Below are positions 1-19,724 of a stretch of 57,113 nucleotides of DNA, piece after piece. The position numbers and the translations under genes were made by a program. Source of the DNA: Minisyncoccia bacterium (GTDB lineage: Bacteria; Patescibacteriota; Minisyncoccia; Phycocordibacterales; Phycocordibacteraceae); NCBI GenBank assembly GCA_041485695.1, contig JBGPJZ010000003.1, positions 1 through 57,113 on the forward strand, in the 5' to 3' direction. The notes beneath the pieces were generated by a model, which saw only the letters and a list, made by a program, of their open reading frames with translations, did no database searches and was not told where the DNA came from. Each line of letters begins with the position of its first letter. Within the stretch, counting starts at the first letter, position 1.

Positions 1-13
1 AGTTACATCCAGC
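1..13 (-). other. Probable 5' end of an intron or insertion at 23S position 1931 (truncated by window edge)
   Basis: The rRNA sense strand reads CCTAAGGT then GCTGGATGTAACT instead of the conserved AGCGAAATTCC. The break falls exactly after U1931, a known group I intron site. Only 13 nt are visible. Confidence 0.45.
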
Positions 14-2042
<2,029 letters not shown>

Positions 2043-2131
2043 TGCGGAGACCTGAATATCACTCTCATTATTCGCACTCTCACTCCCTCCCTTTCTTTCG
2101 AAAGGTCGGGATTACCTAATGCATATTCGTA

Positions 2132-18669: not shown

Positions 18670-19245
18670 ATGGCCGTCTTAAGTTACAACGAAATACTCC
18701 CCAAATCAGTCATCAACTATAACGACGAGCCCTATGAGGTCCTCTCGTCGCACATTTTTCGTATGCAGATGCGCAAGCCAGTCAATCAGACCAAGCTCCG
18801 CCACCTCATTTCCGGACGCACGATTGAAATCTCTTTCCACCAGAATGAGACAGTAAAAGAAGCTGAGGTAGATCAGCTCGATGCGCTCTATCTCTATACC
18901 AACAAGGGCGAGAGCTGGTTCGCAGAAGTGGGCAATCCGAAGAATCGTTTTTCATTCCCCGAGGACGCCGTACACGAGCAGGTGCAGTGGCTCGTCCAAA
19001 ACAATCCGGTAGAGGTCGTCACCTATGAAGAGAAACCGATCACGATCAAAGCGCCGATTAAAGCAGATTTGAAGGTGACTGAAGCTCCTCCGGGCATTAA
19101 GGGCGACACCGCGCAAGGCGGCAATAAGCAGGTAACGCTTGAGAGCGGTGCCTCCGTCAATGCTCCCCTCTTCATCAACGAGGGCGACATCATCCGCATC
19201 AACACCGACACGGGCGAATACGTCGAGCGGGTTTCTAAATCTTGA
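18670..19245 (+). CDS. efp: Elongation factor P
   Basis: QMRKPV, PPGIKGDTAQG, APLFINEGDIIRINTDTGEYVER. Confidence 0.95.
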   Translation: MAVLSYNEILPKSVINYNDEPYEVLSSHIFRMQMRKPVNQTKLRHLISGRTIEISFHQNETVKEAEVDQLDALYLYTNKGESWFAEVGNPKNRFSFPEDAVHEQVQWLVQNNPVEVVTYEEKPITIKAPIKADLKVTEAPPGIKGDTAQGGNKQVTLESGASVNAPLFINEGDIIRINTDTGEYVERVSKS

Positions 19246-19270
19246 GTTTATTTAAAAACGCTAGTATCTT
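19242..19270 (+). promoter_or_regulatory. Promoter TTGAGT-N17-TATCTT driving a non-coding transcript
   Basis: Correct spacing, and no ORF between it and the terminator at 19454. Confidence 0.55.
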
Positions 19271-19276
19271 TATCTA

Positions 19277-19450
19277 TAGATAGTGACACCCCTCATCGGG
19301 GATGAGAGCGGACGGTGATATCGCGTCTGCGCAGTCGGGAGTAATCTCACTGCATTAGGCTTGTCGTAGAAGCCCGGTAGGGGTTAGGGAGCGAGAACTT
19401 CTCCAAGCTACTGATCCGAGCGTGTGGGCCTCGTCCGCCTTACACGCTTC
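19277..19450 (+). ncRNA. Putative structured ncRNA, family unassigned
   Basis: At least six stems plus long-range gcggacg/cgtccgc pairing, flanked by a promoter and a terminator. Confidence 0.55.
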
Positions 19451-19453
19451 GTG

Positions 19454-19487
19454 AAAAGCCCGCCGGTGGTACTCCGGCGGGCTTTTT
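19454..19487. terminator. Bidirectional terminator
   Basis: aaaagcccgccgg / ccggcgggctttt. Confidence 0.85.
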
Positions 19488-19517
19488 CCTTTAATTTTCC
19501 CCGGACTTGTGCTCAGT

Positions 19518-19724
19518 CTATGCTTGCACGTAGGGGAGGAGGGCCATGTAGCGGGCGCGCTTGATGGCTTGGGAGATATCGCGCTGTTTGCCGGCGGGGA
19601 TACCAGTCTTCTTCTTTGAAAGCATTTTCGCGTGCGGATTGGTGAATTGCTTCAAGTATGCGACATCTTTGTAGTCGATGAATTTCTTGATTTCTATCTC
19701 CTCACGTTCAGCTTGATATGCCAT
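19518..19724 (-). CDS. rpsR: 30S ribosomal protein S18
   Basis: IDYKDVAYLKQF...QRDISQAIKRARYMALLPYV. Confidence 0.97.
   Translation of the reverse strand: MAYQAEREEIEIKKFIDYKDVAYLKQFTNPHAKMLSKKKTGIPAGKQRDISQAIKRARYMALLPYVQA

Follow-up and report, generated by a model that had tools for sequence, protein, structure and literature searches.

Long structured 3′ UTRs, as well as bacterial small RNAs that are intergenic or derived from 3′ UTRs, have no defining feature other than a promoter, or read-through, combined with an intrinsic terminator. The spacer between efp and rpsR described here resembles such elements in that non-coding sequence is located between a stop codon and a terminator, with short hairpins and a possible internal -10 box, and in that it is confined to a single lineage. 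It differs from bacterial small RNAs in having no identified Hfq/ProQ-type partner, seed region or target. The locus also resembles the bidirectional terminators that are found between convergent genes, as the hairpin at positions 19453-19487 lies between an A-tract and a T-tract; however, whereas the terminator fills the whole spacer in relatives, here ~190 additional nt separate it from efp. Dispersed palindromic or hairpin repeats (ERIC, RPE) represent a third comparison. The present element takes up an efp-rpsR junction that in relatives contains a plain terminator, but it deviates from these repeats in being single copy, in not constituting a long palindrome and in not having been found in other genomes. 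Finally, 6S RNA (RF00013) is of similar length (about 170-215 nt) and its Rfam model is blank elsewhere in this genome, but the element possesses neither a 5′-3′ closing stem nor a central bubble.

The explanation that we cautiously prefer is an ordinary one, in which the efp-rpsR spacer consists of the usual shared bidirectional terminator, preceded by a lineage-specific, single-copy insert of ~190 nt. This contrasts with the original prediction of a self-contained unit comprising a promoter, a multi-stem RNA with a possible pseudoknot, and a terminator.

The convergent efp-rpsR junction

The window, i.e. the entire stretch of 57,113 nt that was analysed, corresponds to contig C3 of a 620 kb genome with a completeness of 97%. 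The closest public relatives of the organism, an ultra-small bacterium of the Kaiserbacteria type, are labelled Candidatus Kaiserbacteria or Paceibacterota, and are CPR bacteria. Insertions in 23S rRNA are expected for CPR, and the 23S rRNA gene of the window (1-2043, minus strand) was observed to carry insertions when compared with the bacterial model, among them one of 53 nt near model position 230 and an extra 19 nt near model position 310.

The efp gene, encoding elongation factor P (18670-19245, plus strand; 191 aa), was identified as an ORF ending in the stop codon TGA at 19243-45; full-length homologues with EFP Pfam domains were retrieved, and an exact-protein look-up returned no identical protein on record. 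In the opposite orientation, the ORF rpsR (19518-19724, minus strand), encoding ribosomal protein S18, represents the last gene of rpsF-ssb-rpsR, with the Pfam domain Ribosomal_S18 being detected on the syntenic gene of a close relative (L179). These convergent genes delimit a spacer of 272 nt (19246-19517), which is non-coding as predicted: no ORF of at least 40 aa is wholly contained within it, and the short ORFs present overlap the flanking genes or the terminator. According to a rough gene map of the genome, in which gaps have a median length of 46 nt and a 95th percentile of 227 nt, the spacer ranks ~15th among 538 gaps and 5th among 80 convergent gaps.

A terminator scan located a bidirectional intrinsic terminator at 19453-19487, common to efp (plus strand) and the rpsF-ssb-rpsR operon (minus strand). 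Its stem encompasses 14 pairs, nine of which are G-C, with a loop of 7 nt followed by TTTTT. The terminator of the original prediction was thereby recovered, and was found to be bidirectional too: on the minus strand the stem reads GCCCGCCGG...CCGGCGGGC and is likewise followed by TTTT, so that it would be able to serve both efp and rpsR. It is positioned 30 nt from the rpsR stop codon, and can be aligned both with the single terminator present in relatives and with the one on the rpsR side in locus L099. Since no terminator was found between the efp stop codon and position 19453, the insert most likely represents a long efp 3′ UTR. Transcripts of efp would run through the insert and stop at the shared terminator, generating a 3′ UTR of ~240 nt, in which the hairpins may, as a side effect, delay 3′ exonucleases. 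If the insert has a role at all, it would be a generic one, for instance protecting efp mRNA at its 3′ end; it may also have none yet.

The predicted promoter consists of the boxes TTGAGT (19242-47, which overlaps the stop codon of efp) and TAGTAT (19262-67) on the plus strand (19242-19267). These are separated by a spacer of 14 nt with an A/T-rich run, and a sigma-70 promoter scan did not call the pair, leaving the -10-like box as the only plausible promoter part. RNA genes of this genome typically lack a clear -35 box and are preceded, at a distance of 7-12 nt, by a TAnnnT box, and for this reason TAGTAT, which is situated 20 nt before the first hairpin, was retained from its sequence as a possible -10 box; such boxes are common by chance, TAnnnT being expected about once per 64 nt. 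If active, this weak internal box may add a separate short transcript of ~215 nt.

Folding of the insert

The orphan core of the insert (19284-19452, plus strand; 169 nt) was predicted to fold into a row of six separate, short hairpins, designated H1 to H6. H1 is formed by CUCAUC and GAUGAG (19292-97/19301-06), H2 by GCGGACG and CGUCUGC (19308-14/19324-30; part of the minimum-energy fold as well as of the centroid fold), H3 by GCAGU and ACUGC (19331-35/19349-53), with an inner GGGA/UCUC helix and a GUAA loop at 19341-44, and H4 by GGCUU and AAGCC (19358-62/19370-74). For H5, the minimum-energy fold prefers 19381-87/19411-17 to the complementary segments CGGUAG (19375-80) and CUACUG (19408-13), with the inner helix GGAG/CUCC. 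H6 (19418-25/19442-49) contains AGCGUGU (19419-25) and ACACGCU (19442-48). All stems that had been listed from the sequence are present at the coordinates given for them.

The sequence CGUCCGC (19432-38), located in the loop of H6, had been proposed as a partner of GCGGACG (19308-14) in a pseudoknot or switch. The two are indeed exact complements and the loop position is correct, yet the pseudoknot or switch itself is not borne out: a match of this kind is at chance level, and GCGGACG also pairs with a local competitor that had been overlooked, CGUCUGC (19324-30). Perfect 7-bp Watson-Crick helices occur twice in the core, compared with a mean of 0.88 in 1000 dinucleotide shuffles (P 0.23), and for 6-bp helices six were observed against 3.6 expected from shuffles (P 0.18).

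Excluding the terminator, the plus strand of the core exhibited a fold z of -1.69, with 14 of the 200 dinucleotide shuffles being equally good, and the minus strand a fold z of -0.43; the better folding of the plus strand constitutes the sole, mild folding signal. The whole unit including the terminator reached a fold z of -3.65, to which the terminator contributed most. Given the z-score of the core and the near-shuffle counts of 7-bp and 6-bp helices, the multi-stem picture and the pseudoknot are indistinguishable from what composition gives, and a defined multi-stem fold could not be confirmed. The hairpins are what a sequence of this length and 59% G+C gives.

Immediately upstream of the core, a perfect 12-bp palindrome, TATCTATAGATA (19271-19282), would form a 5′ hairpin if transcribed. 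It is unique in the genome, yet perfect 12-bp palindromes as such are common (232 genome-wide), and it was therefore dropped as a special feature.

Nearest relatives and the variable slot

To a large extent, the interpretation of the spacer depends on its relatives. The closest efp proteins in a large protein collection are 93% (L178; logan:SRR22808006_114838) and 86% (L179) identical. In the former a terminator hairpin is present a few bases after efp, the contig ending 42 nt after the gene, and in the latter the spacer measures 51 nt and contains only a bidirectional terminator. In a multiple alignment, the left border of the window's spacer (TTTAAAAACGC) corresponds to the sequence flanking, on the 5′ side, the single terminator found in relatives, and the 3′ arm of that terminator corresponds to the right arm of the terminator in the window (CCGGCGGGCTTTTT). 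Between these two matches ~190 nt are inserted, with A-tracts at both borders of the insert (AAAAACGC and AAAAGCCCGC). The simplest history would be a recent insertion, or a de novo expansion, ahead of the ancestral shared terminator.

Homologues of the insert were sought by several routes, for which efp loci were fetched from genomes (80 loci) and metagenomes (80 loci). No homologue was identified among the ~160 syntenic efp-rpsR loci. BLAST of the 229-nt unit returned nothing in 60 relatives, 36 of which are congeners, and local alignment against all spacers did not exceed shuffles. Two covariance models were run with and without filters, one built from the window sequence alone (R1) and one from the window together with locus L016 (R2); apart from a single 9-bit match (E 0.46), no sequence was retrieved with them from 80 loci, 40 congeners or 26 further metagenome loci. 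Motif pattern scans of genome contigs retrieved nothing for one pattern and two chance matches for another, in GC-rich Gemmatimonadales and Pyxidicoccus, and phage and viral collections gave no match to the element. Conservation of the predicted RNA was thus not observed by BLAST, covariance models, local alignment or pattern scans. By these sequence comparisons, the element could not be assigned to a conserved structured-RNA family, as no homologue offering covarying pairs was found.

The convergent synteny of efp and rpsR is kept across Paceibacteria, while the spacers range from 3 to 1579 nt and belong to unrelated sequence families. In some relatives a terminator alone occupies the slot, and in others the slot contains unrelated non-coding stretches, small families of repeats or whole genes. 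The insert resembles a case of evolutionary turnover at this junction, which in relatives measures anything between 3 nt and 1.5 kb. In five loci (L016, L130, L102, L129 and L106), a -10-like box directly after efp is followed by a hairpin-rich stretch of 130-230 nt and then by a terminator; fold z values that include the terminator hairpins were -4.1 for L016 and -5.3 for L130. This slot may thus accommodate small transcription units time and again, although their sequences are unrelated and confer no family membership on the element in the window.

Several of these spacers exhibit features of their own. Locus L130 (2077-2310) carries a different unit of ~230 nt after efp, with an extended -10 box (TGATACTAT) within a hairpin loop and its own terminator, and its fold z of -5.3 is much stronger than that of the window element. 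By eye, the first 50 nt of this spacer (efp 82% identical) resemble those of the window (ATCTTTATC...GATAG..CCCCU..GGGG), but L130 was rejected as a homologue, as neither the model nor the local-alignment tests gave support. The conserved C-terminal efp codons GTT GAG AAA (variants TTGAAA and TTGCAA) form a -35-like box, and in L102, L129 and L106 a TATACT box lies 16-17 nt after it, resulting in well-spaced, promoter-like pairs directed into the spacer. The spacers of three other Paceibacteria (L019:1257-1505, L029:2456-2640 and L133:2077-2379) have in common an element of ~110 nt (GGCATGTTTTGC...GCAAAACGGCCGAGGCGGGGTCGC...), which is tandemly doubled in L019 and L133. A further conserved non-coding element (..GGCGCGGGCA..GACGTAT.GAG.ATACGGCGAAG..GGGCGCCCGTAAC..) was observed in L007 (3270-3375), L008 (3130-3248) and L009 (3135-3256); it follows the efp terminator and precedes the end of rpsR, would consequently be placed in the rpsR 3′ region, and had no Rfam match.

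Several observations count against an ordinary insert, i.e. a spacer that is long for a compact genome, a plus strand that folds better, the presence of a -10-like box and the occurrence of comparable units, from -10 box to terminator, in the slot of several relatives. Streamlined genomes rarely keep useless DNA. The same observations favour a species-specific small RNA gene, a reading that is possible, though we regard it as less likely than the ordinary insert: transcription would start ~7 nt after TAGTAT (near 19274) and end at the terminator, producing an RNA of ~215 nt. This RNA would either work in trans, through base pairing or binding to a protein, or be liberated from the efp 3′ UTR. 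A -10-like box, a structured stretch and a strong terminator, arranged in this order, are consistent with such a gene. Conversely, the sequence is not conserved even where efp is 86-93% identical, the core fold is not significant, the -10-like box is of a kind that occurs frequently by chance and has a wrongly spaced -35 box, and no target or partner can be put forward. The turnover of small RNAs is rapid, and absence at 86-93% efp identity is for that reason compatible with a young functional RNA.

It is improbable that the window and L016 (CAYQCB010000002; efp 75% identical) represent a fast-evolving structured RNA family, in which the fold, including the GUAA hairpin, would be functional and compensatory changes would have preserved the same eight helices. 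The best R1 match in 95 kb is the syntenic L016 spacer, on the same strand and at full length; however, at 9 bits (E 0.46) it is close to many chance matches of 6-8 bits. An alignment of the two sequences fitted to the model shows pairing in 96% of cells, with 17 pairs changed on both sides, but fitting to the structure makes such pair counts lean towards structure, and the local alignment of the two spacers did not exceed shuffles. Common to both are CCCCU..GGGG, a hairpin with a loop starting in CGGUGA and a hairpin with a GUAA loop. Nevertheless, R2, which was built from both sequences, found nothing else, including in the 40 congeners and the closest metagenome loci, and repeated loss would be needed to account for the many closer relatives without the element.

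Little credence is likewise given to the idea that a mobile or dispersed palindromic element, or a small gene, became inserted at the terminator and decayed to a remnant. The insert coincides precisely in position with the 5′ flank of the ancestral terminator and has an A-tract at either border, which would suit such an event, as would the repeat families (L019/L029/L133 and L007/L008/L009) or whole genes that occupy the slot in other relatives. Against this, and unlike ERIC- or RPE-like repeats, the element was found in one copy in its own genome and in none of the 40 congeners, it is without terminal inverted repeats, and tblastx against the spacers of the 80 genome loci, including the genes that fill the slot elsewhere, revealed no coding remnant.

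More doubtful still is a bolder proposal, according to which the efp-rpsR junction of Paceibacteria would act as a cradle of young, fast-evolving RNA genes, and the ~215-nt RNA of the window would be a two-state switch, with GCGGACG (19308-14) toggling between CGUCUGC (19324-30) and CGUCCGC (19432-38).

Known RNA families and implications

Searches of the region 19100-19600 against Rfam 15 at gathering score revealed no family match. At E<=10, nothing but sub-threshold matches due to the terminator hairpin was obtained, the best being Rhizobiales-2 (31.1 versus 40 bits) and ar14 (29.5 versus 58.8 bits). The original prediction had matched the unit to none of tmRNA, RNase P, SRP RNA or a riboswitch, which agrees with the absence of matches to these models and to 6S, at gathering score as well as at E<=10; a confident Rfam match was not obtained.

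The housekeeping RNAs were accounted for elsewhere in the genome. A tmRNA was identified at the edge of contig C6 (1-407; RF00023, 69 bits) and RNase P RNA on the same contig (13255-13611; RF00010, 140 bits), both above the cut-off; ARAGORN reported no tmRNA gene in the genome, although RF00023 detects the copy on C6. RF00013 (6S) gave no match in the region at E<=10 and none in the genome at E<=1. In a congener, it produced a full-length match between RNase J and ndk that, at 35 bits, is below the cut-off of 46.4. A sequence 75% identical to the latter is located between the same genes in the present genome (C2:83789-83937), where RF00013 misses it altogether. This 6S-like RNA (about positions 90-238 of C2:83700-84050, locus L177) is rod-like; it is closed by a long stem (GUGGAGCCACU / AGUGGCUCCAC), GCAACUU / AAGUUGC form an inner stem, and it probably fills the 6S role in this organism. 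The spacer was consequently dropped as a 6S candidate, having no RF00013 match and a row of hairpins rather than a rod.

The spacer had also been attractive as an SRP RNA, since RF00169 is blank in the genome. However, this model matched none of the 41 genomes (the present one and 40 relatives) at E<=1. PF00448 (Ffh/FtsY GTPase) had no match in the present genome and, in relatives, only P-loop-level matches (profile positions 3-53, at most 23 bits), which were obtained in 7 of the 41 genomes, and no SRP GTPase motifs were recognized in a six-frame translation. Controls for these searches were detected in 13-14 of 14 genomes. As no SRP54-type GTPase was found in the genome or in the 40 relatives, no SRP RNA is expected, and the candidate was dropped. 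The SRP system appears to be absent from the whole order; our literature search retrieved no paper on SRP loss.

A divergent housekeeping RNA (6S, SRP RNA, RNase P RNA or tmRNA) missed by the Rfam models is therefore practically excluded: blank results for RF00169 and RF00013 left two slots open in principle, but tmRNA and RNase P RNA are encoded elsewhere, a rod-shaped homologue of the congener's 6S match is present on C2, no SRP RNA is expected, and a housekeeping RNA would be kept in congeners, in which the efp-rpsR element is lacking. The element is accordingly left unassigned as an orphan, not as a divergent form of a known RNA.

Literature searches brought up no regulatory RNAs of CPR bacteria, and a discrete, abundant RNA at this locus, if it exists, would be of modest importance, in view of the comparable units in the slot of several relatives. 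Possibly more interesting are two by-products of this work, i.e. the apparent order-wide absence of SRP and a 6S-like RNA that is missed by the Rfam model. Should the preferred reading, a shared terminator with a lineage-specific insert, be true, its consequences would be small: it would caution that rows of 5-7-bp hairpins in DNA of 59% G+C are insufficient on their own to point to an RNA gene, and the efp-rpsR junction would provide an example of spacer turnover between convergent genes in a streamlined CPR genome.
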